From assembly GCA_023128415.1 (NCBI GenBank), contig JAGMEA010000019.1:1-61219 (forward strand): a stretch of DNA of 61,219 nucleotides, in the 5' to 3' direction. Of the stretch, positions 10,012 to 61,219 are shown piece after piece. The notes beneath the pieces were generated by a model. The model did no database searches and had not been told where the DNA came from. It saw nothing but the letters and a program-made list of their open reading frames with translations. Numbering within the stretch: the stretch's first letter is position 1; every line of letters starts with the position of its first letter. The stretch comes from Candidatus Babeliales bacterium. Its GTDB lineage: Bacteria > Babelota > Babeliae > Babelales > UBA12411. The position numbers and the translations under genes are program-made.

Positions 10012-10189
10012 AATGTTCTAAGATTCCTCTATGTATTTTTAACTATTGTGAAATAAAAGATACAACATAGCAAGAATGCCCTAAAAATACGGTAGTTTTA
10101 ACAAAATCACATTAGTAAAAACAAGGTATCTCTGTTATAATGAAAAGAACTAATCAGAAGCTTTTTTAGAATGGATAAAGGAATTTTAT

Positions 10190-40620: not shown

Positions 40621-40842
40621 ATGCCTACCAAAAATCCTAGAGTTAACATTACTTTTGAAGAAGCAACGGCTGCTATGCTTAGTTCTTTAGCAAAGCAAGA
40701 ACAAAAGTCTTTATCTAGTTTAGCTAAAGAACTAATTCTAGAAGCATTAGAGAGAAGAGAAGATATGGTTTTATCTTCAATTGCAAAAACTCGTGATTCG
40801 GGAAAAGGAAAAAAAATAAAGCATAAAGATGTCTGGAAATAA
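40621..40842 (+). CDS. type II antitoxin, RelB/ParD-like (ribbon-helix-helix)
   Basis: 73 aa. RVNITFEEATAAMLSSLAKQE is an RHH-like N-terminus. It overlaps the toxin ORF by 14 nt. Confidence 0.7.
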   Translation: MPTKNPRVNITFEEATAAMLSSLAKQEQKSLSSLAKELILEALERREDMVLSSIAKTRDSGKGKKIKHKDVWK

Positions 40843-41110
40843 GCCGTATAAAGTTGAATACCTAACCTCTGTTATTGATGAGGACATTTCTAAGCTAAAT
40901 AAAAAAATAAAATTGATGATTAAAAGGGCAATAGAGAAACAACTAATGCTTGATCCTATTGGATTCGGTAAACCCTTGCGCTACAGCTTAAAGGGACATA
41001 GGCGTTTACGTGTTAGTAACTATAGAGTCGTATATCGTATTAACGCTAATTCAAATGTAATTCTTATTGTAGCAATAAAACATAGAAAAGAAATTTACGA
41101 AAAATTATAG
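40829..41110 (+). CDS. relE: type II toxin, RelE/ParE superfamily
   Basis: 93 aa. DPIGFGKPLRYSLKGHRRLRVSNYRVVYRINANSNVILIVAIKHRKEIY is the classical RelE/StbE pattern. Confidence 0.85.
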   Translation: MSGNKPYKVEYLTSVIDEDISKLNKKIKLMIKRAIEKQLMLDPIGFGKPLRYSLKGHRRLRVSNYRVVYRINANSNVILIVAIKHRKEIYEKL

Positions 41111-42342: not shown

Positions 42343-42978
42343 ATGTTATTTAAAAATAGAAAAGATGCCGGAATAAAACTCGTCCGAAAACTTAACAACT
42401 ATAAAAACAACAAGGATGTTTTAGTGATAGGACTACCTCGTGGTGGTGTTATTGTCGCATATGAAGTGGCAAAAAATTTAAATGCCAAGCTAGATATTAT
42501 TGTTGTTAGAAAAATTGGTGCACCATTTAGACCAGAACTAGCAATAGGAGCAATCACTCAAGATGGTGAACTAATACTAGATAATGAACTTTTTCAGTCC
42601 CTAGGAGTAAAAAAAGAATATTTAGATCAACAAGTTGAAATAGAAAAAAAAGAAGCTCAACGTAGATTAAATTTATACAGAAAAAATCGTTCACCGTTAC
42701 AATTAAAAGACAAAATCATAATTTTAGTTGATGATGGAATAGCAACAGGTTCATCAATACTGGTAGCTATAAAATCTATTAAATCCAAACAACCTCAAAA
42801 AATAATTGTCGCTGTTCCTGTTGCCCCACCAGATATTTTTAAAAAAATCGAAAAAGAAATTGACGAATTTATTTGCTTAGAAATACCAAGCTGTTTTGAT
42901 GCTGTAGGGAGTTTCTATGGAACCTTTCCACAAACAGAAGATGAGGAAGTTATAGAAGTATTGTCTGGAGAAATTTAG
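42343..42978 (+). CDS. phosphoribosyltransferase-domain protein
   Basis: FKNRKDAG N-terminus, GLPRGGV, IILVDDGIATGSS PRPP-binding motif. Confidence 0.75.
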   Translation: MLFKNRKDAGIKLVRKLNNYKNNKDVLVIGLPRGGVIVAYEVAKNLNAKLDIIVVRKIGAPFRPELAIGAITQDGELILDNELFQSLGVKKEYLDQQVEIEKKEAQRRLNLYRKNRSPLQLKDKIIILVDDGIATGSSILVAIKSIKSKQPQKIIVAVPVAPPDIFKKIEKEIDEFICLEIPSCFDAVGSFYGTFPQTEDEEVIEVLSGEI

Positions 42979-43020
42979 ATATGTTATCTTTCGTGAAAAG
43001 TTAAAAATAAAGGATAAAAT

Positions 43021-43539
43021 ATGAATAAAAATCTCACTTTAAAATATTCTGCTCTTTTTCTTGTAGCATTAATAACAATAAATATGGGTGGCGGTGGAGA
43101 AACAAGCATCCTTCCTGATCCTTACCATACAGAATTAGAAGATGATCAAAAGGTCTTCGTAGCAACTCTTTTACAAAATGGTGAGGGAAAAAAGGTTAAA
43201 AAAATAAATTTTGCAGGAAAAACAACTATTGAAAACGTTAAAGAAGAAGGGCAAAATCCTGCCATATCAATTTCTAGAACCATAGACTTATCTACAACTA
43301 AAAAACTGACAATCGTGGATATGGCTAAAGATCCTAAATACGTAATAGTAAACCAAGAAAAAACTGATGGCTCCACTGTCGACAACCTTTTGGTTCCTAA
43401 AAATATCATCGTATCTGGAATAGGCTTAGGAACAGGAATAAAAGGTGACAGAATCTATGGCCGTTTACATATTTTTAGTGCAATAGAAATACATCACGGT
43501 GAATCCGGGAGAGCTCAAGAAAAAGATATTATTAATTAA
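43021..43539 (+). CDS. hypothetical secreted protein
   Basis: N-terminal hydrophobic segment. No recognised motif. Confidence 0.4.
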   Translation: MNKNLTLKYSALFLVALITINMGGGGETSILPDPYHTELEDDQKVFVATLLQNGEGKKVKKINFAGKTTIENVKEEGQNPAISISRTIDLSTTKKLTIVDMAKDPKYVIVNQEKTDGSTVDNLLVPKNIIVSGIGLGTGIKGDRIYGRLHIFSAIEIHHGESGRAQEKDIIN

Positions 43540-43577: not shown

Positions 43578-44207
43578 TTAATTAGTAATACAGTATGTTT
43601 CTTTAAAGTATCTCTTCGCGTCCTCCATGCCGAAAGATCTTTCTACCATCTCATCAAGGCTTTCGGAAGTATCATCTATATATCTATCCCATTCAAGTAA
43701 AGCTTCATCTACTTCTTCTACAGTCATTGTAGACTCTGCTAATTGATATACTAATGCCCAAGGCAATAATCCATTTGCAAGAAAATAGTCTCCTAATTCT
43801 TCGTCATCAGGAAAAGTACATGTAGAACCTACAGGCGCCTCTGTTGCGGATGCTGCCATTGGAGCAGTAATTAGCATCGATAAGAAAAGTGTCCCTAAAA
43901 AAGCTTTTTTTGATAATCTAAAACTGGGGTTTTTTCCAAAAGATCTCCTAATAAATTTCCGAACTAAACCTTTTGCTATTTCAAAAGATTGACCGTCTAT
44001 GGCCTTTGGTTGTCCAATACTTGTTTTTCTCAAATATCTAGTTAGATTTCGGGAATCTTGCATTTGTTGATGTCTATCTGGAGTTTTATATGATCGGTAA
44101 CCTTTTACAACTGCTTTATCATGTTTATATCTGTTACCACCAGGAAATAAAGTGCTTAAAGAAAATGTTGCTAATATTAGAAAAAGCATTTGTTTTAAAA
44201 TATTCAT
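43578..44207 (-). CDS. hypothetical secreted protein
   Basis: Signal peptide, basic middle region, second hydrophobic helix, acidic C-terminus. Confidence 0.4.
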   Translation of the reverse strand: MNILKQMLFLILATFSLSTLFPGGNRYKHDKAVVKGYRSYKTPDRHQQMQDSRNLTRYLRKTSIGQPKAIDGQSFEIAKGLVRKFIRRSFGKNPSFRLSKKAFLGTLFLSMLITAPMAASATEAPVGSTCTFPDDEELGDYFLANGLLPWALVYQLAESTMTVEEVDEALLEWDRYIDDTSESLDEMVERSFGMEDAKRYFKETYCITN

Positions 44208-44369
44208 TAATTAATCTTTCAATTTAATATGTTTAAAAAAATTCAATCTTATCAAAAATACATAATGCATTAACCTTATGGACACTTCTTAATAATATCT
44301 AAAAATTTAAATCACTTAAAACGGGCCTATGATCCGAAGGATACAATTCTTTTTTAAAATTATTATCCC

Positions 44370-44408
44370 AAAAAAACCGGTAGGTTTTACCTAATTGGCA
44401 AAACCTAC
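44370..44408 (-). terminator. rho-independent terminator after the AbrB-like gene
   Basis: Minus strand: GTAGGTTTT-GCCAATTAGGT-AAAACCTAC, followed by CGGTTTTTTT. Confidence 0.6.
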
Positions 44409-44426
44409 TCTTTAATCCCTTAACAG

Positions 44427-44861
44427 CTATTGCTTAATTTTTCCATCTACAACATTAGAATAAAACGGATATCCTAATGCAATAGCTGCCTCTTTCATTT
44501 CTTTATCCATTTTAGCCAACTCAGGAACATATTTGAGGCGAAGAGCTAAAAATTCTTTAAGCATGTTCATAGAATCTGGATTCTTTTCAACGGTTTGACA
44601 AAATTGACGCATTTGCCCTTCCATAAGCCCCTTCATTGGACTAGCAGAACCAGTAATAGATTCTATTCTATTATGAATATTTTCAACATCTAACACAATA
44701 GAATCTGTTGGCTTTGCCTTTTCTGAAGCCTTTATGATAAGGACATCACCTTCGATTCTCAATTTTAATATAGAACCTTCACTTATATTAAGTAGCTCTA
44801 AAATGGCACGATCAAATACCAATGCATTGCTGTTTCCATATTTAACCAATTTTTTAAGCAT
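44427..44861 (-). CDS. AbrB/MazE/SpoVT-type DNA-binding domain protein with a roughly 90-aa C-terminal extension
   Basis: N-terminus KLVKYGNSNALVFDRAILELLNISEGSILKLRIEGDVLII is a swapped-hairpin barrel antitoxin-like motif. No obvious toxin partner lies adjacent. Confidence 0.6.
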   Translation of the reverse strand: MLKKLVKYGNSNALVFDRAILELLNISEGSILKLRIEGDVLIIKASEKAKPTDSIVLDVENIHNRIESITGSASPMKGLMEGQMRQFCQTVEKNPDSMNMLKEFLALRLKYVPELAKMDKEMKEAAIALGYPFYSNVVDGKIKQ

Positions 44862-44993
44862 TGTTTTTCCTATAAATCTTTATGCGTTATTACGATGTAG
44901 AGCCAAAACATGATACAATGTAGTAACTTTGTCAAATAGGGCGATATAATCGTATAAACAATTAAAATTTTGTACAAGGATTTAGTAAGATAT

Positions 44994-45043
44994 TAAAGGC
45001 AAATTGGCTGGAGATAGCCGACACACTTCGAACTTTTGATTGG
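44994..45043. repeat. conserved intergenic repeat, copy A
   Basis: TTGGCTGGAGATAGCCGACACACTTCGAACTTTTGATTGG. It ends 8 nt from the stop of the ATPase gene. Confidence 0.9.
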
Positions 45044-45050
45044 ATAATCT

Positions 45051-46172
45051 TTATAAAAATAGATTTGATAGGTATTTTTCAGCGTCCAATATCCTGATTC
45101 CCATTTTCTTTTGTTCATGACGTAAAAATTGAACTAACTGAATAGCTGGATAATTATATCTTTCATGAAAATGAATTAATGATCTGCTAAGCACACTATT
45201 AGATAACTTTACCTCGATAATACTTTCAACCTCTTTCTGGCACACTAAGGCAAAATCTACTTCCAATCCATCTTTTGTTCTCAAGTAATGTAAAGCATAT
45301 TCCTTAGCTTGATAATCAATTTTGGCACAAACATCCTTAAGTAAACTAACCGCAACTAGATTCTCTAATTTTGCACCATCATCGCCCTGAACAAGACCTG
45401 TATCAAAAAAATACAGTTTTGGTTCTTTTAATAGGCTTCGTGCAATATTTTTTGAATAAGGAGTCACCCTAAAAATAATAAATAAAGCTTCTAATATTTG
45501 AATATATTTTTTTATAGTTGTTGGTGACACTGCAACGTCTTCAGATAAAGACTGATAAGAAACAGGGGTTCCAACCTTATTTCTTAATAAATTAAAAACA
45601 AGCTGCATAGCTTTTACATTATAAACTTTGTCTATCTCAAAAATATCCGTACTTAAGAGACTATTAATGTATTGTAGTCGCCACCTATCAGCATTAATAT
45701 CATCTTTTGATAAATAAGGCTCAGGAAACCCGCTGCGTGTTATTAACATCTCCATATTAATAGGTTCACCCAGCTGTTTAAGTTCAGCCAAAGAAAGTGG
45801 ATATAAGCTATGGCGAAAATATCTTCCAGCTAAAGAATCGCCTAACTGATTGTAAATATCTAATCTCGCACTACCAGTTACCAATATGCGCATTGATTCT
45901 GGCTTTGTATCATATACCCCTTTAAGATAGTTCTTCCAGCCTTCCATCTTATGTAATTCATCAAGAATCAAAAGATCTGTTGTTGGCAACCAGGACTGCG
46001 CATTAATAACTTCACGATCCAAAACTTGATCATAATTTAGATAAACACCTCTAGAAAATTCCCTAGCAATCTCTTTTGCTAACCACGTTTTCCCTGTTTG
46101 ACGTGGGCCCACAATAAGTACAATTTTCTTCTCTAGATCCTTAAGAATCATTTTCTTTTGTATTCTGTTCAT
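45051..46172 (-). CDS. AAA+ ATPase (AAA_14 / DUF4143-type) with a C-terminal PD-(D/E)xK-like motif
   Basis: Walker A GPRQTGKT, Walker B LILDELHK. The C-terminus GLEVDFALVCQKEVESIIEVKLS fits D...ExK. Confidence 0.8.
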   Translation of the reverse strand: MNRIQKKMILKDLEKKIVLIVGPRQTGKTWLAKEIAREFSRGVYLNYDQVLDREVINAQSWLPTTDLLILDELHKMEGWKNYLKGVYDTKPESMRILVTGSARLDIYNQLGDSLAGRYFRHSLYPLSLAELKQLGEPINMEMLITRSGFPEPYLSKDDINADRWRLQYINSLLSTDIFEIDKVYNVKAMQLVFNLLRNKVGTPVSYQSLSEDVAVSPTTIKKYIQILEALFIIFRVTPYSKNIARSLLKEPKLYFFDTGLVQGDDGAKLENLVAVSLLKDVCAKIDYQAKEYALHYLRTKDGLEVDFALVCQKEVESIIEVKLSNSVLSRSLIHFHERYNYPAIQLVQFLRHEQKKMGIRILDAEKYLSNLFL

Positions 46173-46300
46173 TATCCCCTCAAATTTTTAGACCTTACTT
46201 TACGACTATAACATATTGCAATGGCGAAAAGTCAAGACTTTTATGCATTACGATGGTGAAAAGTCGGATTATTGTTATAGGAACATGTCTGAAATTTATT

Positions 46301-46333
46301 TGGCTGAGATAGCCCGTACACCGAACTATCGAG
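46301..46333. repeat. degenerate copy (F) of the intergenic repeat
   Basis: TGGCTGAGATAGCCCGTACACCGAACTATCGAG. It has the same orientation and the same order of GGCT..AGCC and CGAAC blocks. Confidence 0.6.
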
Positions 46334-46347
46334 TATAATATTATATA

Positions 46348-46440
46348 TGGAATGCTTTCTAACTTTGCAAAAAAGACGCCTAAGGAAGTTTCTAAACCAG
46401 CTAAACTAGGCTCCAAACATACATAGGAAGCCTTTCTAAT
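46348..46440 (-). pseudogene. about 90-nt relic of an APC-family permease gene, paralogous to 55633-56838
   Basis: By eye, DNA is about 80% identical to 56043-56135. Translation SYVCLEPSLAGLETSLGVFFAKLESIP compares with LYACLGPSLSGLEAPLGIFFTKLESIP in the intact gene. ORF 46195-46452 is otherwise meaningless. Confidence 0.65.
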
Positions 46441-46495
46441 ATTATAACTCATTGTACAAACATTCTGAGTATCTTTAAGAGGTTGAACCGACTAT

Positions 46496-46837
46496 TTAAT
46501 AATTAATTTCATTTTTTTCTAATTCCTCATACTTGTAATGTATAAAAAACAGACGGCAACGCTTACTAACCTCACATGGTTCCCATGATAAAACCATCGT
46601 AATTCTATCGAAAGAAACTATTGGGCAATAATCACTCGGTATATAAGAATTTTCAGGAAGAACGGGATTTTCAGGATTACCATCTTTTGAATACAAAAGA
46701 AATTCATGTGAAAAATTTGTACCCTGCAATGTTAACATTTTTTCAAGAGATGTAATACATTCAGAAGAACTATTTAACGACTTTTTAAGTAAAGATGCCT
46801 CTTTTTCTAATTCTTTTAAAGTTTTATCAAATGACAT
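46496..46837 (-). CDS. hypothetical protein
   Basis: 113-aa ORF, with GGAG 6 nt upstream of the ATG. No motif recognised. Confidence 0.35.
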   Translation of the reverse strand: MSFDKTLKELEKEASLLKKSLNSSSECITSLEKMLTLQGTNFSHEFLLYSKDGNPENPVLPENSYIPSDYCPIVSFDRITMVLSWEPCEVSKRCRLFFIHYKYEELEKNEINY

Positions 46838-47074
46838 TTCTACTCCTTATATTATAAATTTTATAAATATTATAAGTTTTATAACCGTAATCAAACGTTA
46901 AAAGGCCCAATCAAGGGAAAGAATTTTTTCTAAAAAGCATGAACTAACACAAAAATTTTTAAAAAACTCTTTGTAATCAATCAAAACAACTTAGATTAAT
47001 TACCTTGGTCTTAGTTTATTTTAATAAAAAAATCTAAAAAATCAAAATTCCACGCATCCTAGAGGGCAATGCTG

Positions 47075-47123
47075 TTACCAAACCTGGCTGGAGATAGCCG
47101 GCACGCTTCGAACTTTTGACTGG
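47075..47123. repeat. conserved intergenic repeat, copy B
   Basis: TTACCAAACCTGGCTGGAGATAGCCGGCACGCTTCGAACTTTTGACTGG. Confidence 0.9.
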
Positions 47124-47421
47124 CAAAGCTTATAAAAAAACCTAACTAATTCAAGACTTTATGAGAGAACTACCTAATTACAATATTTTTTCCAAAAATT
47201 AAGCCCCTCTTACTAGGACTCACTCAGTACTTAAACATTTCTGGGTAGCGTTGTTGAGGATGACTCTACTGAAATTAAAACAAGTCATAAACATGCTCTA
47301 AAATCCAAAATGTCATAATATTACCGTTCAGGTTAGGTACATTCATCAGAAGACAATGATACAATATAGGCAAACCCAACATTGCTATAAGTAACAAAAG
47401 TAAAGTTGCAGTAGAACTTTT

Positions 47422-47892
47422 TTAGGAGTTATTTTTATTAACGAAATAAAATCCGCCTAATTTAGTTCCGTATGCAAATGCTAAGAAAATAATTAATGCC
47501 AATAAATCGCAGAACGCTCCATTAACAAGTAGTGCCAAAACTGCAATAGGAATTATACCTATACCTAAAGAAGCAAGACCTATGTAAACACCTAGCGCAC
47601 CCCAAATAGCATAAGTTACACAGATCCCTTCAAGGCTTATCAATAGAAAGAAAAAAACTGATGAAATGATCATTCCTATGCCAGCATAGTTTCTTGTTTT
47701 TTCAAAAAAGCCAAGAGGAAGAAGGATTAATAAATTGAAAACAAAAACTATCCACGGAAACCAGCCTAACCATGTTAAAAAAAAATCTGCAAATCTAATA
47801 AGAACAGCAAGATGCATTATACACAATAGAAACATACCAATGAGAATAATAAATCCAATAAATAGATTCTTCAAATTTTTTAACATTTGCAC
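47422..47892 (-). CDS. small multi-pass membrane protein
   Basis: 156 aa with 4-5 hydrophobic helices. Confidence 0.45.
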   Translation of the reverse strand: MQMLKNLKNLFIGFIILIGMFLLCIMHLAVLIRFADFFLTWLGWFPWIVFVFNLLILLPLGFFEKTRNYAGIGMIISSVFFFLLISLEGICVTYAIWGALGVYIGLASLGIGIIPIAVLALLVNGAFCDLLALIIFLAFAYGTKLGGFYFVNKNNS

Positions 47893-47933
47893 GACATACC
47901 CCCATTTTTATAAAAAATAATCGTTTAATAATT

Positions 47934-48218
47934 CTATTTGCTTCTTGCGTAGGGATTAACATATTTATATCCACTACTAGGCTTAAAATATCCAGAGACT
48001 ATTTTTGTTTTTCTTAATCCATTTACACGACTAACTTGACCAAAGCCAGCATAAGGCGCCTTCTGTACATAACCTCTAGATTTACCATAATGCATGGAAT
48101 AACTTCTTCTGTTGGAAAAATTAGTAGAATAAGCGCATCTTCGAGCGAAAAAGGCATTCATAGGAACTACAAAGAGACATGTAAAAATAAGAATTTTTTG
48201 TATTTTTGATATCTTCAT
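47934..48218 (-). CDS. small basic secreted protein
   Basis: Signal peptide followed by an R/K/Y/G/S-rich sequence. Confidence 0.35.
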   Translation of the reverse strand: MKISKIQKILIFTCLFVVPMNAFFARRCAYSTNFSNRRSYSMHYGKSRGYVQKAPYAGFGQVSRVNGLRKTKIVSGYFKPSSGYKYVNPYARSK

Positions 48219-48430
48219 AATAACCCTCCAATTTATTATAAAATTCCCTATAATTTCATGTTATATTAGTTAGAAAGCCCCGTCAAAAGGCCTTTTAAGT
48301 AAAAAACAACCAAAAGCATAGATTTTTTTAGAAAATTGCTTATTTTATCAAGATAAATAGAACTAAATTATTCATCGATTTTGTTAAAAATTTTAACAAA
48401 ATAATGTGATTTAAAAATCTTTAGAGAACA

Positions 48431-48488
48431 TACAAAACCTTACCAAAGTTGGCTGGAGATAGCCGGCATACTACGAACTTTTGATTGG
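48431..48488. repeat. conserved intergenic repeat, copy C (long form)
   Basis: TACAAAACCTTACCAAAGTTGGCTGGAGATAGCCGGCATACTACGAACTTTTGATTGG. Confidence 0.9.
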
Positions 48489-48546
48489 AAAAATATAAGC
48501 CAACCCAACATTATTTATAAATTAAAGTCTTAATATCCAGGTTTTA

Positions 48547-49419
48547 TTATCTTTCTAGTAGAGCTTTCGCCTCTTCATCAGTCAACCATTCTTCATGGTC
48601 CACTAGATGATTATACTGAATAGAAATAATATTTGCATCAAAATGGCTAGCCATATGCATTGAACCATTATAAACATATCCTTCAAAAAGAATTTTGCGT
48701 TTATATATCTCAGATGCTACCAATTTAACTTGCTCTCTATCATCATCAAAAAAAATAATCCGTTTAGGTTTATAATGCATATAATCCAAAAATGCCCCTA
48801 AGACCGCACCCTTTGTGCTACGATTTGTTAACAAAATACCTTTATAAAAAACCGGATAAAACCCCTTATCATCGTGATATAATGTTTTTAAAATAATGTC
48901 AGGAAATTTGGTTACACTAAAATTAATGCCAACTTCTTTCAGTTTATCATAGCGCCATTTGGGAAAATCTCGTATAACACCCATAGTACCCGTACTAAAT
49001 CTACTCAAAGCAAGAACTTCTACTTTTCGCTCCTGTAATGTTTTAATCATCTCAGGCACAATAGCTTCTATAATAAGAGGAACCTCCTTAGCAAGACGCT
49101 TACTAAGAAGATATTTTTTATTTTTATCTGTTCTCTTAAATGCAGTATCTGCAATTTTTTCAATTTCTTTTTTATGTGCAAGAAAATTTGATTTCCAAAA
49201 ATTTTTGCTCGGTGAAACGATAAGTGTATCATCAATATCAAATAGGACTAATGTGCCTTCATCAGCGCTATTTAATGCTTTTTGAACTTCTTTAAAAGAT
49301 TCTATACTTACTATATTGAAGCGACTGGCTGAATAAGACTTAATAAAAATTAGTAAACCAACAAAAAAAATTAATGCACTAATAAAAATAAACTTTATCT
49401 TATTAACATTCATAATCAT
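48547..49419 (-). CDS. membrane-anchored HAD-superfamily-like hydrolase
   Basis: Signal anchor, LVLFDIDDTLIV (DxDxT motif I), IIFFDDD (motif IV-like). Confidence 0.55.
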   Translation of the reverse strand: MIMNVNKIKFIFISALIFFVGLLIFIKSYSASRFNIVSIESFKEVQKALNSADEGTLVLFDIDDTLIVSPSKNFWKSNFLAHKKEIEKIADTAFKRTDKNKKYLLSKRLAKEVPLIIEAIVPEMIKTLQERKVEVLALSRFSTGTMGVIRDFPKWRYDKLKEVGINFSVTKFPDIILKTLYHDDKGFYPVFYKGILLTNRSTKGAVLGAFLDYMHYKPKRIIFFDDDREQVKLVASEIYKRKILFEGYVYNGSMHMASHFDANIISIQYNHLVDHEEWLTDEEAKALLER

Positions 49420-49454
49420 CCAGCCTATATTTAAGTGTTATAATAGAAACGGAA

Positions 49455-51158
49455 TTAAGACCACAAGTAACTATAAATTTTTGAAAAAATAGCCCTTAAA
49501 GAACCTATCGAATTATGCGCCAGAGTTGATTTGGATTTGGTTGCCATAAGAGTAGTTGAAGTTTTTACGCCTTTATCTGCCATAGAAATAACATACTCGG
49601 GTTTTAAATTAATAGAATGTTGACTTATATAATCTAAAACATCTCTTTCAAAATCATTTTGCTCTCTATTTACTAAAATGATATTTTCTAAAAGATTGAA
49701 TTTGCCAATGAAATACAATGGAGCCGTTGCCCCATGAGAAGCATTATCAAACGATAATCCCCCTATAGAAAACATAGCTAAATCCAAATTTTTAGCTATA
49801 GCATAAGGAATTGCAATTTTTGTTCTTGGGTGAAACCATTCACCTTGCCCATAAAATGACACTACTCTATCTGTAGGTGGGAAAAAAAATAAATTTTGTA
49901 CATTATTTTTATCAACTTTAAGAGCATAAGCCCTCTTGGATTCTGATAGAAAAGTAAATCCCACCGCTCCCCTAGTGTCACTACTATCATAAACAATCCC
50001 AGAAAATAACCCCCTAGAAAATGAAATACTTCTAGGCCTATTTATTCCTGCCCTAATAAAACTATTCCATATAGTCTTTTCAATTTTCTCCTGTTCTTTT
50101 TGTGCATCTTCTTCATATTCTTCGACTTCCTTTTCTATGGCTTTATTAATATCTTGATAAGTTTTTTCTGAAGAATTACTTCCCCTATAAATAAGATACC
50201 CATTCCGTTGCCTAGACCTAATTTCAACTTCTAAAACTTTTTTAAGTAAATCTATACTTTCACTTTTTCCCAAAATAGAAATAAATGACTGAATATATTC
50301 ATCACCTATTAGATTGCGATTTAACATAGAATGCAAAAAAGATGGATCTAATAATCCATAAAATGCTGATAGACAATTTTCACGTTTTATTCTAATAATA
50401 TTTTCAATTAATTCATCGAGAATTTCTTTAAATATAGGAGTAAGTTCTTCTGAATTTTCAATAAGTTTGTTAAAATCAATACCCTTTCTCAAAAAAAACT
50501 GTGTAATAATTTTTTCTATAAAAAAATTGGCCTTTTTAACTGATTCGAATTGATTAGTTTTATTAAAAATTTCCCAAACTTTATCAGTGTTTCCATCAAC
50601 GATTGTCGTTTCTATCTGTTCTGACATAGAATAAACATATTTATTAAAATCACTTGCATCTCTAAATAAACCATCCTCACCTCGATTTATAATAAAAGTA
50701 TATTTTATAAACTCTGATGGTTTACGTAGTTTTTTTTCTTTAAAACGTTCATCCGCAATAAAATCTGGAGCAATAAATTGTCCTGTTTCAATGTCATAAT
50801 TAAAATGAATTAAATTTAATAAAAAAAGTTCGAATAAAACTGATGGAATAAATCCTATATTCAAATTTTCACAATCTGTTCGAATTTTTCTTCTAAGAAA
50901 AATTTCTTCAGCATATGCTTCGTCTGAATAAAGCTTTTGCTTTTCTTCCTCCGTAATTCTATTTAAAGGATTCATACTCATAGGAAATTGATACTTTAAC
51001 CGAATATCAATTGCCTTTCGATAATTTGTATTCAAATCAGCCAAGGGTACAACTCGAGAGCCAATCTCATTCCAAATAAAATACTCTGAATGTAAAAAAT
51101 GAAAGGAAAAACTATATAATATAAAACAAAGTAATTTCTTATTTTTCAAATTTATCAT
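49455..51158 (-). CDS. large hypothetical secreted protein with a C-terminal region carrying R / S-x-S / Q-x-E ADP-ribosyltransferase-like motifs
   Basis: 567 aa with an N-terminal signal-like helix. LIYRGS (R325), FLSES (S405-S407) and GQGEWFHPR (Q438-E440) occur in ART-compatible order. Confidence 0.45.
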   Translation of the reverse strand: MINLKNKKLLCFILYSFSFHFLHSEYFIWNEIGSRVVPLADLNTNYRKAIDIRLKYQFPMSMNPLNRITEEEKQKLYSDEAYAEEIFLRRKIRTDCENLNIGFIPSVLFELFLLNLIHFNYDIETGQFIAPDFIADERFKEKKLRKPSEFIKYTFIINRGEDGLFRDASDFNKYVYSMSEQIETTIVDGNTDKVWEIFNKTNQFESVKKANFFIEKIITQFFLRKGIDFNKLIENSEELTPIFKEILDELIENIIRIKRENCLSAFYGLLDPSFLHSMLNRNLIGDEYIQSFISILGKSESIDLLKKVLEVEIRSRQRNGYLIYRGSNSSEKTYQDINKAIEKEVEEYEEDAQKEQEKIEKTIWNSFIRAGINRPRSISFSRGLFSGIVYDSSDTRGAVGFTFLSESKRAYALKVDKNNVQNLFFFPPTDRVVSFYGQGEWFHPRTKIAIPYAIAKNLDLAMFSIGGLSFDNASHGATAPLYFIGKFNLLENIILVNREQNDFERDVLDYISQHSINLKPEYVISMADKGVKTSTTLMATKSKSTLAHNSIGSLRAIFSKIYSYLWS

Positions 51159-51380
51159 CCTTAACTAAAATCAACATTTTAAAATCTATTAAGTTTCAAA
51201 TAATTAATTTAAGTTATTTTAGTAAAACTAAGCAAAACAAGACAACAAGTTCAGAAAACAACCTTTAAAAAAACACATATCTCTGGCTGTTAAATGGCAC
51301 TAAAGACAATTTAAATCTAATAGCAATACGATTGATTGCGAAATGATTATAACAAGAACTATAGCTGAATTTTATATATA

Positions 51381-51433
51381 ACCTTACAAAACATTGGCTG
51401 TAGATAGCCTACACACTTCGAACTTTCGAGTGG
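51381..51433. repeat. conserved intergenic repeat, copy D (variant)
   Basis: ACCTTACAAAACATTGGCTGTAGATAGCCTACACACTTCGAACTTTCGAGTGG. It ends 17 nt from the stop of the hydrolase gene. Confidence 0.85.
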
Positions 51434-51449
51434 AGTAATATCCCCTCTG

Positions 51450-52241
51450 TTAATATAACTCGCGTTTAAGTACCTTATAAAATTCCTCTTTTGCTTCTTT
51501 TTCAATCCAAGGTGTATGCCCACAATTTCTAAGAAGTATTAAATGAAATTTTTTTAAAGTCACTGATAATGGTTTTTCAACACCTTCAACTGGATGTGGA
51601 TCATAATCACCATGTATTGCCACAACAGGGCAGTGAATTTTTTTACCAAAGTCTAGAAGTTTACCACTTTTTCTCAACTCACTAGCTTCTTTCCAAATAG
51701 ATTCATAAACATCATAATTAAACTCTATCTCTTCATTAGTATCTTTTAATGGGTTATAAGAATCTGTTTTTTTAAAATATTTAACTAAATCAAGAAAAAT
51801 TTTGCTCTTATCCATTGATGCTGAACTATTAATAATTTTCAAAAGATCGTTTCTTTTTAATTTATCTTCTTCTGTTAAACGCCTCGAACGGGTATTAGCA
51901 AGACTACTTACATATGATTCTTCAAACGGCCCACTACTTAAAAGTATAAGTTTCTTAACAAACGAAGGATTTTGTGACGTAAAAATAAACGCTAGCCATG
52001 CTCCCCATGAATACCCAATAAGTGTTATTGGTAAAGAAGCTTCTATTTGCAATATATTCTTTAATTCTTCAAGCTGACCATCAATTGTTAATTTTTTTGG
52101 CAATGGCTCCAAAATGCCATGCATTTTGGAAAGCTCTTTTGCAACGGGAGCCATTTCACCTGAGGCACCAGGTCCACCATGTAGAACGACAACATTATAT
52201 GGTGACTTACCATATTTTCTTAAATTTTTAACTGTTTTCAT
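51450..52241 (-). CDS. alpha/beta hydrolase, prolyl aminopeptidase-like
   Basis: VVLHGGPGASGE, elbow GYSWGA, CGHTPW. Confidence 0.75.
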   Translation of the reverse strand: MKTVKNLRKYGKSPYNVVVLHGGPGASGEMAPVAKELSKMHGILEPLPKKLTIDGQLEELKNILQIEASLPITLIGYSWGAWLAFIFTSQNPSFVKKLILLSSGPFEESYVSSLANTRSRRLTEEDKLKRNDLLKIINSSASMDKSKIFLDLVKYFKKTDSYNPLKDTNEEIEFNYDVYESIWKEASELRKSGKLLDFGKKIHCPVVAIHGDYDPHPVEGVEKPLSVTLKKFHLILLRNCGHTPWIEKEAKEEFYKVLKRELY

Positions 52242-52360
52242 TAATAAGGTCCTATCTATATAGTAGCAATAGTCTTTGAATTTTATAGCTTTTAAGAATT
52301 CTTATATAAAGATTAAAAAATCAATAACTACGTCTAATATTAACGTGAAAAAAGATACTA

Positions 52361-52418
52361 TACAAAACCCTACCAAACCTGGCTGGAGATAGCCGTAACA
52401 CTTCGAACTTTTGATTGG
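52361..52418. repeat. conserved intergenic repeat, copy E (long form)
   Basis: TACAAAACCCTACCAAACCTGGCTGGAGATAGCCGTAACACTTCGAACTTTTGATTGG. Confidence 0.9.
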
Positions 52419-52663
52419 GATGAATACAAATTCAATCAAAAATTATTTGTCAAATAAAAGATTCCTAATCTGCTCTGCCTTAGAACCCAAAACCTTGATA
52501 TTGAGATGGCACCATCGACATAAACTTATCGCAACCTATGTTAAGAACATCAAAAAGAACTTGCAGTTCCTTAGCAATACTCGATTTATCTGAACTAGTT
52601 ACCCCATTAAGTAAGATGATCATAAAATATGTCACTTCTTATTTAGTAATAAAACTACTTTCG

Positions 52664-53743
52664 TTATTTTAAATTTTTATTTCCTACAAATAAAGAAATT
52701 AAAATTTCGTTGAATCTTTCAGGCTCTTCAAAAGGTGGATGATGTCCAGAGCAATCAAACCAAATCAATTCTTTTTTAGGAGCATTCAATTTCTCTAAAT
52801 ATTCTGCTGCTAATTTTGAAGATACTTGATGATCATGCCTACCTAAAAGAAAATAGACCGGAACATTTAATTTTAAAACTTGTTCAAATAAATTCACATT
52901 AAATATTTCTGACCAAAGAAATTTTAATGATATTTTTGATCCCAAAACAAACCTTATTATATCTTGCCAGGAATATTCCTTAATACTCAGCATTTTAGGA
53001 GCCCAATGCATTATATATCCATCTCTACCATAAGCACTCCCCCCAAACTTCGTAAGCCATTTTCTTTCAATTTTTACATCCTTAATATCTTTACCTGGAG
53101 GAAATTTAATTTTGCTTAATTCAGATAACGCTTTTTTATTATTTCGCTTTTTTGCTTCTACTAATGCAAATTCGTAACTAAGTCGTTCTGAATCTTTTAC
53201 ATTTGCAACTTGTCCTGTTCCAATGTAAGCTATTAGATCTTCTGGATATTTATGTGCATAAAAAGTACCTAAAATAGATCCCCAAGATTTACCTAAAAGG
53301 TAAACTTTATCTCGTTTAAATCTTTTTTTAAGATATTGAATTAATTCATGAAGATCAGATACAAATGTATCAATGTTCATAGATTCTGGGGGAATGTTTT
53401 TATTATAAGACTTTCCACATCCTCGTTGATCCCAACCAACTGTAAGAAAATAATTTTCAAGGTCGTTATTATAGTAACGAAAAAGTGCATGCTCAGATAT
53501 TCCGGGACCACCATGCAAAAAAATAAAGATTGGATTGTTTACATTAGAACCACGCAGGAGAACCCATTGTTCAACTCCGCCTAAAGAAAGATATATTTCT
53601 TCAGCTATACTATTTTTTATCATTTTACCTTCATTATCAAGAAATGGACTTGTAGAAGTATTTCGAGATATCCAGAAAATAACAAGAATAAAAATAAATA
53701 TTATTATAACTATTTTCAAACCTAATAAAATACGATCTGGCAT
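52664..53743 (-). CDS. membrane-anchored alpha/beta hydrolase, prolyl aminopeptidase-like (paralog class of 51450-52241)
   Basis: FLHGGPGISE, elbow GKSWGS, SGHHPPFEEP. Confidence 0.75.
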   Translation of the reverse strand: MPDRILLGLKIVIIIFIFILVIFWISRNTSTSPFLDNEGKMIKNSIAEEIYLSLGGVEQWVLLRGSNVNNPIFIFLHGGPGISEHALFRYYNNDLENYFLTVGWDQRGCGKSYNKNIPPESMNIDTFVSDLHELIQYLKKRFKRDKVYLLGKSWGSILGTFYAHKYPEDLIAYIGTGQVANVKDSERLSYEFALVEAKKRNNKKALSELSKIKFPPGKDIKDVKIERKWLTKFGGSAYGRDGYIMHWAPKMLSIKEYSWQDIIRFVLGSKISLKFLWSEIFNVNLFEQVLKLNVPVYFLLGRHDHQVSSKLAAEYLEKLNAPKKELIWFDCSGHHPPFEEPERFNEILISLFVGNKNLK

Positions 53744-53762
53744 TAATTAATCTTTTAAAATT

Positions 53763-54515
53763 CTATTTATTTTCAGACTTTTTTTGCCTGACAATCTCTT
53801 CTTCAATACATTTTACCAGAGGATATTCTTTCAATTCCGGATAAAATTCATGCTGTTGATCATAAGCTAATTTTGATGGTATTTGTCCAGCACTATTTTT
53901 AATATCATTTGAAGCACCATGCTCTATAAGCAATTTTATAACATCCCTATAATCTTGTAATCTTTCTTGATAGCATTTATGATATTCTGGTTCTTTTGAT
54001 GGATATATCCACATTTCACCACATGCTGCATCGTGAAGTGGAGTAAAACCATCCTCACTTGACTTGCAGTTTGGGTTGGCATCATTATCAAGTAAAACTT
54101 TAACAGCTTTTGCATTACCTCCACATGCAGCGATACTTAAAGAAGTACAGCCACTTCCGTTATTTTCAATATCTGCACCAGCCTTAATCAAAGCCTCCAT
54201 TACCTTTGAAAGATTGCGCTCAGCGGCCCACCACAAAGCCGTTCTTCCATAGCTATCTGGAAAATCAACTAATGCCCCTTCACTAAGAAGTGATTCTATT
54301 TTCTTAATTTGTATAGGTGCCATTTTCTCTGCTTCAGCTCGAACAGATTCAAGATGATTATTCACAAAAAATTCAACATCTGATGCAAAAATTACATTAT
54401 GTAATGGCGCATATCCATTTTTTAAAATATTGTGATTAGGTTTAGCTATAATAAAATTCTGATTTACAAGAAAAATTAATGTGAATAATGAATTAATAAG
54501 TTTTCTAATTGTCAT
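53763..54515 (-). CDS. secreted ankyrin-repeat protein
   Basis: GRTALWWAAERNLSKVMEALIKAGADIEN, GFTPLHDAA, LLIEHGASNDIKN. At least 4 ANK repeats follow a signal peptide. Confidence 0.85.
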   Translation of the reverse strand: MTIRKLINSLFTLIFLVNQNFIIAKPNHNILKNGYAPLHNVIFASDVEFFVNNHLESVRAEAEKMAPIQIKKIESLLSEGALVDFPDSYGRTALWWAAERNLSKVMEALIKAGADIENNGSGCTSLSIAACGGNAKAVKVLLDNDANPNCKSSEDGFTPLHDAACGEMWIYPSKEPEYHKCYQERLQDYRDVIKLLIEHGASNDIKNSAGQIPSKLAYDQQHEFYPELKEYPLVKCIEEEIVRQKKSENK

Positions 54516-54639
54516 GATACCCCCAGATGTTTAAAAAGAATAATAATACAATTGTATCTTAGAAATACAAACTTGCAAAAGGGCTATTTGGGCTCGAAAA
54601 AGCATAAAACATAGGTTTTTTAGAAAGTTACTTATTTAA

Positions 54640-54867
54640 TTATTCATCCAAATCTTTTTTACCGTCTTTATATCCCTCCATATAATAGCTATCATTAGAA
54701 GATTGAGGCGCTATTTTGTCATAAGCATCATCATGACCATCATCATACTCATCATAAGCGTCTTCACTATTGATTTCTTCTAAACCATTATGATTACTAC
54801 AAGAACCTAAGCATAAGACTGCAAATAATAAAAGAGCGATTGATAGATTTCGAAAATGCACCAACAA
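54640..54867 (-). CDS. small acidic lipoprotein
   Basis: Lipobox LCLGSCS, then a D/E/Y-rich sequence. Confidence 0.5.
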   Translation of the reverse strand: MLVHFRNLSIALLLFAVLCLGSCSNHNGLEEINSEDAYDEYDDGHDDAYDKIAPQSSNDSYYMEGYKDGKKDLDE

Positions 54868-54911
54868 TCCTTGATTAGAAAAATAAAAAATCTGATTAAA
54901 TTTCTTTTAAC

Positions 54912-55457
54912 TTAATCTCTTGAATTATTAAACACTTTAAAAATTTCAATCGAATTAAAACCTTCTCTAATAGAAAGCCAGGATTCATTAAATTCCTTTT
55001 CTTTTCCATAATCACATAAACAATCAACTGCAGCCACGGCCCTATTTTTTAGTTCAACAAATTTTACTGCTTCCACATGATTTGAAATAACTACCTTTTC
55101 AAATTGTTTTACTATCCAATTTTTATTACCCTTTTTATTATGCTTAAAAGCGAGTGTATTTTTTGGCTTACTTAAATTTATTTCTTTACATCCTTTAATA
55201 AAATTTGCTGATGGTTCTTCAAATAAACTGAGAAGCTTTTTCATATTTTCTACCTGGACTTGAGAGTTTTGCCCTTGGGTATCAGAATAATTAAGAGTAA
55301 TGTTGTCTCCAACATGTGATTTATTATTTTCGCCAGATTGAGAAATGAGATTATTGTCATCTCTACCAAAACTCAAGGATTTATTATCACTACCAAAATC
55401 GCCCAAATATTTTTTAAAAATTTTTATCCTTTCACAAATAAATTTAAATATGCTCAT
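54912..55457 (-). CDS. hypothetical protein
   Basis: The start is set at MSIFKF, because the longer ORF (to 55565) reads through tRNA-Gln. Confidence 0.4.
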   Translation of the reverse strand: MSIFKFICERIKIFKKYLGDFGSDNKSLSFGRDDNNLISQSGENNKSHVGDNITLNYSDTQGQNSQVQVENMKKLLSLFEEPSANFIKGCKEINLSKPKNTLAFKHNKKGNKNWIVKQFEKVVISNHVEAVKFVELKNRAVAAVDCLCDYGKEKEFNESWLSIREGFNSIEIFKVFNNSRD

Positions 55458-55490
55458 CGTATTCCTCTTTAAAAAATTTAAATTGAACCT

Positions 55491-55564
55491 TGGCTGGGAA
55501 GAGAGGATTCGAACCTCTGTTGCTGGATCCAGAATCCAGAGTCCTGCCGCTAGACGACTTCCCA
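55491..55564 (-). tRNA. tRNA-Gln (anticodon CUG), CCA encoded
   Basis: Minus strand: TGGGAAG-TC-GTCTAGCGGCAGGAC-T-CTGGA-TTCTGGA-TCCAG-CAACA-GAGG-TTCGAAT-CCTC-TCTTCCCA-GCCA. It has the U1-A72 pair typical of tRNA-Gln. Confidence 0.9.
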
Positions 55565-55632
55565 CTTCACCATAAGTTTTAACAGATTTTTATCTTTTGA
55601 AAACCCACCAATAGCTTCTTTTCACATTATCT

Positions 55633-56838
55633 TTATAGAATAAGACCTTTTACACACTGATAAGATATATAGAGGCATGAAACAACGCTCAAATAAGCCA
55701 CAATCTTAGGTAGCACAATTTGATCCCTTTTAAATTTATAAAACTTGAGGAAAGCAAAAACTGTTAGGAAATAACATACAACTATTCCAAATACAACTAT
55801 ACGTTGCAAACTAGGTAGTTGCATCATACTCAGCGCAAAGAAAAGAGAGACTATTACTTGTAAAACTATACACCAAATAGGCATACCGTGCTTATTCGTG
55901 CGAGTAAAAATTAAAAATTTATTTAAATCTTTTGCTATCGCAAACATATTCCAATTATTAGCCTGCATAATTCCATAATAAGCTCCCATCATTGAAAGTA
56001 AAATAAAGCTATTTGCTAACATTTTTCCGGCAGAATCTAAAAATGGAATACTTTCTAACTTTGTAAAAAAGATACCTAGGGGAGCTTCTAATCCTGATAA
56101 GCTAGGCCCCAAACATGCATATAAAGAAAATTGAAACAATGCTAGTAGTGAAGCAACGAGTAAAAATGATGTTACAACTATTTTATATAAATGTTTTTCT
56201 CCACCCTTAACTGTATGTCCAATAGAACAACAAGTTTCAAATCCCATCATTGCATATAGCGCAATTGGAAGAGCTGAAGAAAACCCACCAACAGTTGGCA
56301 GTGTTTCAACAGTAAAATATGATGGTGTAAAGATAAAACCTAATAACAATATTGCTGCTAATACAGGAATTCCTTTTAAAAACATAAAGATCAATTGTAA
56401 CTTACTACCAAACTTCATACCCCTGGCATTTAAAAATCCAAAGAGAATAGCAGTTACAATAATTAATAGAGAACCAGAAAACTTTGAAAATATAGGAAAT
56501 ATACTAGGTAAATATTCTAAAACAATAGCCCTCAGCAAAACTGCTTGTGAAATAGTTTTAGCAAAAAAGTAAGTAACCACACCTATAGTTCCAGCAGTTA
56601 CTCCTAAGCCTTCTTTACTGTAAGAAAACAGCCCGCCTTCTACGGCTGGATTAATTTTTGCAAGTTCTGCTATAACTAAAACTAATGGCAAAACCATTAA
56701 TGCCATTACAACATAACTTAATGCACTTAAAGAACCTGCTAAGGATGTAAGAGGCGACAAATTAACAAAAACACCAGCCCCCATCATAACATTCATATTC
56801 ATTATAATAACAAGCCAAAAATGAATATTATTTTTCAT
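55633..56838 (-). CDS. APC-superfamily amino acid permease
   Basis: About 401 aa with 12 TM helices and GAGVF near the N-terminus. The start is set at the ATG (MKNNIHF) preceded by GGTGGA. The ORF-track start is GTG. Confidence 0.8.
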   Translation of the reverse strand: MKNNIHFWLVIIMNMNVMMGAGVFVNLSPLTSLAGSLSALSYVVMALMVLPLVLVIAELAKINPAVEGGLFSYSKEGLGVTAGTIGVVTYFFAKTISQAVLLRAIVLEYLPSIFPIFSKFSGSLLIIVTAILFGFLNARGMKFGSKLQLIFMFLKGIPVLAAILLLGFIFTPSYFTVETLPTVGGFSSALPIALYAMMGFETCCSIGHTVKGGEKHLYKIVVTSFLLVASLLALFQFSLYACLGPSLSGLEAPLGIFFTKLESIPFLDSAGKMLANSFILLSMMGAYYGIMQANNWNMFAIAKDLNKFLIFTRTNKHGMPIWCIVLQVIVSLFFALSMMQLPSLQRIVVFGIVVCYFLTVFAFLKFYKFKRDQIVLPKIVAYLSVVSCLYISYQCVKGLIL

Positions 56839-56953
56839 AATTCCACCCACCACTTAAAATAATCTTGAAAATTTAACTACTATTTTTTTATTCTTTAAGA
56901 AGGATTTATGATTCTTGCCCAATCCTACGCCCCCAAGATTTTGACACAAGACT

Positions 56954-57193
56954 ATGGCTTCAATTTACTATCAGAAGAGAAAAAATTCAACCAAAGGACA
57001 AAAGACAATGAAAACCTACTGGAATAATGGTTTTAAAAAAATTATAGGCATTTTACTCATAATTATAGGCATTCCAGGGCTTTTTCTTCCATTTTTACAG
57101 GGAATAGTTTTTATTATTATAGGAACAACTTTGTTAGGAAATAAAAAATTAATTAGTTATCTAAAAAAAATAAAGCATCACTTCAGTAAGTAG
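56954..57193 (+). CDS. small two-TM membrane protein (PGPGW/DUF454-like impression)
   Basis: IIGILLIIIGIPGLFLPFLQGIVFIIIGTTLLG. Confidence 0.4.
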   Translation: MASIYYQKRKNSTKGQKTMKTYWNNGFKKIIGILLIIIGIPGLFLPFLQGIVFIIIGTTLLGNKKLISYLKKIKHHFSK

Positions 57194-58379: not shown

Positions 58380-58600
58380 TAACATACCCTCGATGCAAGT
58401 CAAACAAACTCTAAGCAAGCCACAACTTACACTCAAAGAATATCCCTGTCAACACAAAATAAGTCGACCCTTAAAAGCTCCTTTAAAAAGACAATCTATA
58501 ATTCTAAATAAGCTATGAATTCAAACATTGAATACCAGAATTTAAACAAAAAAAGAAGGTGCCGAAACACCTTCTTAAAGTCTATTTAGTATACTTTTAA

Positions 58601-59218: not shown

Positions 59219-59457
59219 TGTAACCTCCATTAGAGTTACTAGTTATACTAACTCCAAAGCCCTACAAGGACTCTAGAAAAGGGCGATATACCCTTATTCA
59301 CGAGATTACATCCACCTATATTCCTGTCAAAAGCCCCAAACCAAAGAGACCTAAAAAAAGGGCTAAAAAAAGATATTTTTTGAAAATTTTAGAAAAAAGC
59401 AACAAAAAAGGAGGAAGTTTTACCTTCCTCCTATAAATTTAAAGCTTGATTATCAAA

Positions 59458-60933: not shown

Positions 60934-61219
60934 ACTTTGCTCTCCTTTTAAATAACTCAATAAAATAACCCACAGAAATCTCTTCTGTCGTAGCAATGAT
61001 AGATTACTTTTTGCAACAATAGCAAGATTTTTTCTATTTTTTCTTCACAAAACGTACGAATTAATTGTAAATAAAGGACTTTTTAACATGTTTTTTTTTA
61101 TTAACTAAAAAATACTTTTCAAAAGATTGTCTAAACCCTAATTTACAAAAGATTAAATATGGAAGGTGAACTACCGACCACTAAGCTTGAAGCTTTAGTG
61201 GCGGCTTCCTGCTTCGCCC

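Follow-up and report, generated by a model that had tools for sequence, protein, structure and literature searches.

A family of short direct repeats was identified on contig JAGMEA010000019.1 of Candidatus Babeliales bacterium, within a stretch of 61,219 nucleotides that is referred to here as the window. Its six copies (designated A to F) were found in the gaps between minus-strand genes of unrelated content. The interpretation favoured for this repeat is that it may be a duplex DNA site recognised by a protein, at which promoter-bearing gene modules would be joined or exchanged within a conserved plasticity locus. The probability of this is put at roughly 35%, the figure being held down as no enzyme was found and no mobility was observed.

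All six copies are intergenic, lie on the plus strand and are contained within 7.4 kb (44994-52418; Table 1). The copies listed in an earlier note on this DNA, five of them good and one degenerate (F), were recovered by pattern, repeat and profile searches, with agreement on coordinates, single strand and intergenic placement. The good copies share a core of 39 nt with the pattern TGGCTG-N-AGATAGCC-N7-T-N-CGAACTTT-N-GA-N-TGG, in which 30 of the 39 positions are invariant and indels are absent. Since these cores are free of indels, the variable block was correctly described in that note as being exactly 6 nt in length, with the block itself proving to be merely semi-variable ([AGT][CA]A[CT][AG]C). 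An upstream extension (TACAAAACCYTACCAAA) was likewise found as described, being complete in copies C and E and partial in B and D, with the repeat ranging from the 39-bp core to approximately 66 bp in its fullest copies. Pairwise identity of the cores in the window is 32-37/39, and their GC content is 49%, compared to approximately 31% for the region.

Searching the window with the 39-nt pattern and allowing up to three mismatches gave four matches, compared to 0.00 in 100 dinucleotide shuffles. Copy D differs from the pattern at more than three positions and was recovered by a repeat search and with nhmmer (E=8e-18). With an nhmmer profile built from the copies, the five good copies were identified with E values of 1e-18 to 1e-20, and degenerate copy F, which contains indels, was matched at 46297-46334 (E=2e-4). 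The statement that the repeat is present nowhere else in the 61 kb was upheld by nhmmer (--max) on the whole window, and no further copies were found with nhmmer in the 10 kb past its right end. The source-genome sequence covered thus comprised approximately 71 kb of one contig (the 61-kb window and 10 kb to its right), of which approximately 64 kb outside the array is free of copies. The same arrangement was found in three independent assemblies (NCBI DAOWJI010000022.1, an ENA scaffold and Logan contigs), indicating that it is not an assembly artefact.

The copies are situated in long intergenic gaps (189-584 nt) of a run of minus-strand genes, with all genes from 43578 to 61000 being encoded on that strand, and have start-to-start spacings of 2080, 1365, 2945 and 985 nt. 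The genes between them had previously been judged to be unrelated, and indeed no paralogy was detected among the array proteins. Where a long gap separates the last intact stop codon from a copy, it was found to contain gene wreckage, namely a fragment of a permease gene at copy F and a chloramphenicol phosphotransferase (CPT)-like open reading frame (ORF) at copy E. The permease fragment is positioned 8 nt from copy F and on the same strand as the intact gene, which is 9.7 kb away. Resemblance among the flanks of the copies is mosaic, copy B being like E and C on the left and like A on the right, which is the pattern expected from exchange inside the core. A similarity downstream of copies A and F (CATCGTAAT..GCATAAA) was marginal and, apart from the repeat, the only motifs shared in the flanks of the copies were AT-rich low-complexity k-mers.

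A scan for exact matches to the pattern in one genome per species (185,579 species) identified one true relative, on a contig designated L001, and two chance matches in GC-rich coding DNA; a scan of this kind would miss diverged family members, and the lineage is very sparsely sampled. Pattern scans of metagenome and viral contigs returned chance matches only, and BLAST searches against plasmids and phages returned nothing. Of the relative, 8 kb was read. Its positions 1320-2116 were found to be syntenic with window positions 42709-43530, sharing a phosphoribosyltransferase (PRTase) remnant and a gene for a 172-amino acid (aa) protein at approximately 55% amino acid identity. The single copy of the repeat in the relative is situated at this syntenic locus and has minus-strand genes on either side, with 25 nt separating it from the preceding stop codon and 148 nt from the next start codon. 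Its core matches the window copies at 33-37/39 positions, its flanks being at random-level identity, with the exception of an 8-nt right flank (AGTAATAT) in common with copy D. As core identity between the two genomes equals that within one genome, the sequence is either under purifying selection or has been exchanged between lineages. Judged by sequence comparison, the motif has stayed at a single locus from the divergence of the two lineages onward, and its conservation across genomes shows it to be functional, whether it is a junction site or not.

Genes around the copy in the relative differ from those of the window, the sole gene type in common being an AAA_14 paralogue with 25% identity. 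Surrounding this copy is a recent segmental duplication of 94-96% identity (1828-2139 with 5948-6260, and 3018-3431 with 6226-6642), one duplicate of which is interrupted by an 878-bp segment with a gene for a VanY/M15-like peptidase, this insertion being bounded by the short repeat GCTATT/TCTATT. Furthermore, the PRTase gene of the relative is truncated to its last 88 codons or so. The gene remnants at the copies of the window, along with the segmental duplication of the relative, point to a locus that is recombinationally active in both lineages. Beyond these genomes, the closest homologue of the 172-aa gene was found on a contig of 3.2 kb, from which the array is absent. A repeat search and a loose regular expression identified no analogous repeats at other Babeliales loci. 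On one of these contigs (L009), a different intergenic repeat of 67 nt was observed (15539-15605 and 17912-17978, 97% identical) that flanks a 738-aa gene and ends in a terminator-like hairpin (AAAAAGCCAGG...CCTGGCTTTTTT), and whose sequence is unrelated to the 39-nt motif.

Table 1. Copies of the repeat, modules between them and flanking features of the locus (window positions; aa, amino acids).
Feature	Position	Strand	Previous stop to repeat (nt)	Repeat to next start (nt)	Remarks
Copy A	44994..45043 (core 45005-45043)	+	7	132	Between AAA_14 stop and start of 144-aa AbrB/MazE-like gene; nhmmer E=2e-18
Copy F, degenerate	46301..46333	+	162	128	8 nt from permease fragment; before AAA_14 start
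Copy B	47075..47123 (core 47085-47123)	+	298	237	After non-coding DNA 3' of 156-aa membrane-protein gene; before 113-aa gene
Copy C, full extension	48431..48488 (core 48450-48488)	+	58	212	After DUF2608 stop, before 94-aa gene
Copy D, most diverged good copy	51381..51433 (core 51395-51433)	+	16	222	After 263-aa hydrolase stop, before 567-aa gene
Copy E, full extension	52361..52418 (core 52380-52418)	+	245	119	~60 nt after truncated CPT-like ORF, before 263-aa hydrolase gene
144-aa protein, last array module	44427..44861	-			Weak SpoVT/AbrB/MazE-type N-terminal match
AAA_14/DUF4143/HTH_11 ATPase, module F-A	45051..46172	-			Own conserved promoter palindrome ~46173-46265
Permease-gene fragment, 89 nt	46342..46430	-			83% identical to 56038-56126 in intact amino-acid permease
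113-aa protein, module B-F	46496..46837	-			No family match
94-aa putative secreted protein and 156-aa membrane protein, module C-B	47422..48218	-
567-aa protein and DUF2608 (HAD-like) protein, module D-C	48547..51158	-
263-aa alpha/beta hydrolase, module E-D	51450..52241	-			Proline-iminopeptidase-like
Truncated 47-aa CPT-like ORF	52480..52623	-			Gene remnant upstream (gene sense) of copy E
172-aa gene, left flank	43021..43539	+			Function unassigned; after PRTase gene; locus identified in L001 and L008 by its orthologues
tRNA-Gln	55491..55564	-			Right side of variable minus-strand region

The likelihood of the repeat acting through a folded structure was assessed at both the RNA and the single-stranded DNA (ssDNA) level. 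On either strand, the fold energies of the copies could not be told apart from those of shuffled sequences (z from -2.4 to +0.6, mostly near 0). From six sequences, and consequently with low power, RNAalifold identified an invariant stem of 4-7 bp, at the end of which a single double change was marginal. The covariation check proposed for the hairpin yielded essentially no compensatory change. The GNRA loop formerly ascribed to it is not conserved, being GAGA in the copies other than D (TAGA) and that of the relative (AAGA), and folding gave no support to the weak outer complementarity that had been suggested. When folded as ssDNA, copies B, C and E gave energies of -3 to -6.8 kcal/mol on both strands (z from -0.7 to +0.9 against shuffles), with a hairpin of 4-5 bp being all that was common to them, which contradicts the idea of an attC-like folded single-strand site. 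An Rfam search at gathering thresholds returned tRNAs only, and at E<=10 over 44900-52500 no match was obtained at any copy.

An unlikely alternative is that the repeat is an RNA-level intercistronic element on one or more long minus-strand transcripts running from E to A, in which the motif would be read as CCAAUCAAAAGUUCGAAG...GGCUAUCUCCAGCC at the 3' side of the upstream cistron and would serve for processing, stabilisation or weak termination and insulation. Strong canonical terminators follow the genes immediately outside the array, approximately 20-25 nt past the stop codon (59432-59409, 58576-58553 and, after the 144-aa gene, 44408-44380), all of them called outside the repeats. Between E and A no such terminator is found and the repeat takes that place, 7, 16 and 58 nt past the intact adjacent stop codons, and a small invariant hairpin (GGCU-N6-AGCC) is present in the copies. 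However, a terminator scan called none of the copies, which have no U-tract and no T-run behind a G+C-rich stem of 5 bp or more. Intact copies B and E are also 245-298 nt from the last intact stop codon, and linear sequence conservation as strong as this would be unusual for a structural RNA signal. The RNA-element option raised in the earlier note is therefore not supported, with folds at the level of shuffles, next to no covariation, a variable loop and no Rfam match. With neither RNA nor ssDNA structure supported, the results point to recognition of the duplex sequence. Taken with approximately 30 fixed positions and the strict orientation of the copies, the lack of structure argues for a duplex DNA site that is read by a protein.

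It is possible, though doubtful, that the repeat is a shared operator or upstream activating site for one regulator, for example the AbrB/MazE-like 144-aa protein, co-ordinating the genes downstream. Such a role would fit conservation that falls on sequence and not on structure, and the array does encode this putative DNA-binding protein, with a copy upstream of its gene. For all copies, that of the relative included, the next start codon follows after 119-237 nt, and the orientation of the repeat relative to that gene is constant. This distance is tighter than that from the preceding stop codon (7-298 nt), and promoter-like sequences occur between the repeat and the genes. Against this, 30 invariant positions over 39 bp far exceed what is typical of operators, the distance to promoter elements showed no conservation, and the copies are limited to one stretch of 7.4 kb as opposed to being distributed across a regulon. 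The downstream genes share no theme in function and are not the same in the two genomes, and the best conserved of them, AAA_14, has the degenerate copy along with its own promoter/operator, which is conserved in genomes that are free of the motif. A promoter scan gave no promoter-like match overlapping the cores. Sigma-54, sigma-70, extracytoplasmic function (ECF) and FliA promoters were considered as identities for the core and rejected, the spacing being off by one or the second element unconserved on reading, with the promoter scan blank at the cores.

Several observations favour an exchange site over an operator. These are the confinement of the motif to one locus in both genomes, the presence of a copy at every joint between unrelated modules, the difference in cargo between the lineages, and the mosaic flanks and gene remnants beside copies. 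A further point is provided by the AAA_14 module, which begins 33 nt after copy F and ends 7 nt before copy A. The encoded ATPase is 78-80% identical to homologues on four other Babeliales contigs (L009, L010, L015 and L016, ~9900-11122), at unrelated loci, and its promoter (CGACTAAA...AGTCTTGACTTTT...TTTAGTCG) is conserved with the gene, with a -35 box between inverted arms whose sequences vary among genomes and whose complementarity is kept. The close fit of this independently conserved module (promoter and coding sequence) between two copies argues for the exchange site.

On the favoured reading, the repeat would be a sequence-constrained double-stranded DNA site marking the joints between independently evolving modules, and would be recognised by a protein encoded elsewhere in the genome. 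Modules may be gained, lost or shuffled at this point of exchange, by means of either a site-specific recombinase or homology-facilitated recombination between copies, as for the phage elements described below. A more specific proposal, regarded as rather doubtful, is that Dependentiae/Babeliales possess a gene-capture platform not described so far, which would be integron-like in function and use neither attC nor IntI. Here, a conserved chromosomal 'landing pad' beside the PRTase and 172-aa genes would collect complete promoter-bearing modules, and the 39-bp duplex site, kept almost unchanged since the lineages parted, would be the substrate of a recombinase encoded elsewhere.

A number of results weigh against the exchange-site interpretation. 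Searches of the array proteins and the neighbours tested (Pfam, NCBIfam and PADLOC) turned up no recombinase, integrase or transposase, and the earlier note's remark on the absence of a recombinase was borne out, with no PF00589-type or other recombinase among the ORFs of 43-61 kb or the large ORFs elsewhere in the window; the gene table of the 10 kb past the window also lists none. The only trace of a mobile element is a decayed IS200/IS605-type TnpB approximately 9 kb to the right of the array. The core is without the clear dyad symmetry typical of tyrosine and serine recombinase core sites. The three identical assemblies offered no sign of presence/absence polymorphism, of a circular junction or of an alternative context. 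The motif was found in two genomes, with a single copy in the relative, meaning that 'array' behaviour is displayed in one genome only. The modules bring their own upstream regions of 120-240 nt with promoter-like sequences, unlike integron cassettes, which are typically promoterless. Finally, AAA_14 is among the most conserved proteins of the clade and is thus not obviously accessory cargo; it is more conserved than GyrB (63-78%) or SufB (62%), as compared between the window and L009 (the sole locus carrying those too).

Two further explanations would not involve a site in current use. That the copies are passive scars of serial integration into a gene 3' end or attachment (att) site, and thus duplicated remnants without present function, is considered quite unlikely. 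The array does lie downstream of a tRNA gene, with gene remnants beside copies, and when read in gene sense a frame QSKVRSV[P/S/T]AISSQ[V/L]W followed by a stop is present in B, C and E (...SQD and a stop in the copy of the relative), with five of the nine variable sites in one codon phase. This period-3 signal is not significant (binomial ~0.15 before frame correction), D has an in-frame stop, the translated frames are without a Pfam match and no array protein ends in the peptide. Similarity to the 3' end of tRNA-Gln is at shuffle level, with no duplicate of the tRNA end in the window, and no integrase was found. Moreover, neutral remnants would not be expected to stay 85-95% identical where orthologous proteins are approximately 55% identical. 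A coding remnant was itself tried as an identity of the repeat (plus frame WLEIAxTLRTFDW; gene-sense QSKVRSVPAISSQVW and a stop) and was rejected as not demonstrable, given the insignificant period-3 bias, the stop in D, the lack of a Pfam match and the lack of any such C-terminus.

The other explanation, a small selfish repeat resembling repetitive extragenic palindromic (REP) elements that accumulated in one weakly constrained region with long intergenic gaps, is thought improbable. The repeat is short, intergenic, more GC-rich than its surroundings and contains a small palindrome, and the decayed IS605-type TnpB gene is nearby. It is, however, without a copy in the remaining sequence covered, of a single orientation, and devoid of terminal inverted repeats and target duplications, with no REP-associated tyrosine transposase (RAYT) or Y1 transposase seen. 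The single copy of the relative at the syntenic locus argues for vertical retention and not for transposition. When features of REPs, bacterial interspersed mosaic elements (BIMEs) and REP doublets forming hairpins (REPINs) were considered over the approximately 71 kb, the copies were found as singletons, in one cluster and in one orientation, and no RAYT was seen.

In the earlier note it was stated that the repeat fits neither the attC nor the pdif class of site, and this was found to be so. Among the other classes tested, terminator, CRISPR, Rfam and tRNA-att were likewise unmatched, and no REP-like dispersal was seen in the approximately 71 kb covered. There are nonetheless likenesses to some of these systems. 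Clusters of attC sites lacking integrases (CALINs) have been described (Cury et al. 2016, PMC4889954). Like attC arrays and CALINs (PMC4889954), the array comprises short, co-oriented sites that resemble each other and follow at intervals below 4 kb in a unidirectional array of unrelated and mostly uncharacterised genes, the agreement in spacing being a geometric one only. The sites also follow directly after ORFs, and no integrase was found nearby, as in CALINs. As in sedentary chromosomal integrons, a platform at one chromosomal locus holds lineage-specific cargo. Unlike attC, the repeat is without R''/R' boxes (RYYYAAC...GTTRRRY) on both strands, the nearest sequences (GTTCGAA and GTTTGGT) breaking the purine positions, and it is also without an extended imperfect palindrome, its ssDNA fold being no better than random. 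No IntI tyrosine recombinase was found adjacent to the array, as it would be in a complete integron, and the small AT-rich genome of a Dependentiae-like phylum is unlike those of typical integron hosts.

A likeness to the promoter-early stem-loops (PeSLs) of T4-type phages was also identified. These elements mediate modular shuffling via recombination between short conserved intergenic motifs, with no dedicated adjacent recombinase, the motifs being stretches of homology at which modules are gained, lost or exchanged (PMC2839356, PMC4122927). As with PeSLs (Arbiol et al. 2010, PMC2839356; Comeau et al. 2014, PMC4122927), the copies are intergenic motifs in a hyperplastic region, are in one orientation and flank unrelated ORFan modules. 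PeSLs, however, consist of sigma-70 promoters and stable G/C terminating stem-loops, whereas both a promoter consensus and a stable stem are lacking in the motif. In addition, PeSLs are phage elements for which recombination has been shown, whereas the motif is in a bacterial chromosome and its recombination is only proposed.

In common with the dif and pdif sites of the Xer system, the copies are short conserved sites with a less-conserved 6-nt block that delimit gene modules. However, dif and pdif are of 28 bp with inverted arms (11-6-11) and an XerD arm resembling TTATGTTAAAT, and the motif is without such arms. The sequences flanking the variable block of 6-7 nt (GAGATAGCCG and TTCGAACTTT) do not form an inverted repeat, and an arm resembling ATTATGTTAAAT is absent. 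Furthermore, the copies are all direct, unlike pdif sites, which alternate in orientation. In tRNA-anchored island arrays (tycheposon-type), att repeats derived from part of a tRNA are situated between cargo modules. The variable region downstream of a tRNA gene with direct repeats between modules is similar to such islands, but the repeat is not derived from tRNA-Gln and no integrase was found. An att site derived from tRNA-Gln had been a candidate owing to shared GTTCGAA and CCAGCCA-GGTT, and was rejected as 9-16% of shuffles, depending on the copy, matched or exceeded the alignment; no second copy of the tRNA-Gln 3' end was found in the window with up to three mismatches. The closest functional analogues of the array are attC arrays/CALINs and PeSLs, the latter being mechanistically less demanding, and membership fails on defining features of both. 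As regards the interpretation put forward in the earlier note, the cassette-like layout, the mismatch with the site classes tested and the recombinase not being found have stood, and the RNA element and the folded attC-like site have not.

The window is chromosomal, encoding MurA, RadA, GlmS, an intein-containing GyrB, SufB, TopA and a Bat operon. Its GC content is approximately 32% and no switch in GC skew was detected in it. The gene order OPT-hydrolase-HIT-PilC-PF1765-tRNA-Ser is common to the window and a contig of GCA_021734185.1, whose AAA_14 protein carries the NCBI label 'Candidatus Babeliales'. The variable locus, on the minus strand, lies directly past the conserved PRTase and 172-aa genes and downstream of tRNA-Gln. 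Among the array proteins, that of 567 aa has a signal-peptide-like N-terminus and no family match, and the AAA_14 protein matches the PADLOC candidate defence family PDC-S01. A link of the motif to AAA_14/DUF4143 genes, the sole cargo type beside a copy in both genomes, was considered and rejected, as the motif is missing at four other Babeliales loci and the gene of the relative is 25% identical.

Some additional features were observed. A full-length CPT-family gene (295 aa) is present beside an ankyrin gene on another Babeliales contig (L015, 3627-4514). The GyrB ORF of the window (10190-13165) is of 991 aa and has an intein splicing domain (residues 455-616) before the Toprim domain; GyrB of L009 is of 814 aa and appears to be without an intein. 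The PRTase at 42343-42978 has best homologues (57-61% identity) that include proteins labelled as belonging to the candidate phyla radiation (Uhrbacteria, Parcubacteria, Harrisonbacteria and Peregrinibacteria), which suggests that this gene may have been horizontally transferred. A ParE-toxin and ribbon-helix-helix (RHH)-antitoxin pair (40621-41110) is situated between a tRNA cluster and the uracil phosphoribosyltransferase (UPRTase) and PRTase genes. To the right of the array, ORF 58601-59230 contains two blocks of tandem repeats with an 18-nt period (58702-58845 and 58989-59104), resulting in a 6-aa periodicity in a 209-aa signal-peptide protein. The TnpB/Cas12f-like remnant (PF07282) is a C-terminal part of 99 aa at approximately 61181-61480 in window numbering (L012, 9454-9753), and is followed by a GC-rich, structured-looking tail; this decayed element bears no similarity to the repeat.

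Members of the Dependentiae/Babeliales are uncultured and live as parasites inside the cells of protists; to our knowledge, next to nothing has been established on how they gain and turn over host-interaction genes. If the repeat is a dedicated, sequence-specific junction site at a conserved locus, it would represent a new, modular route to gene acquisition that falls outside the integron paradigm, and would provide a simple sequence handle for variable effector loci in metagenome-assembled genomes. If it is instead an operator or an RNA signal, it would be among the first cis-regulatory elements defined for the phylum.

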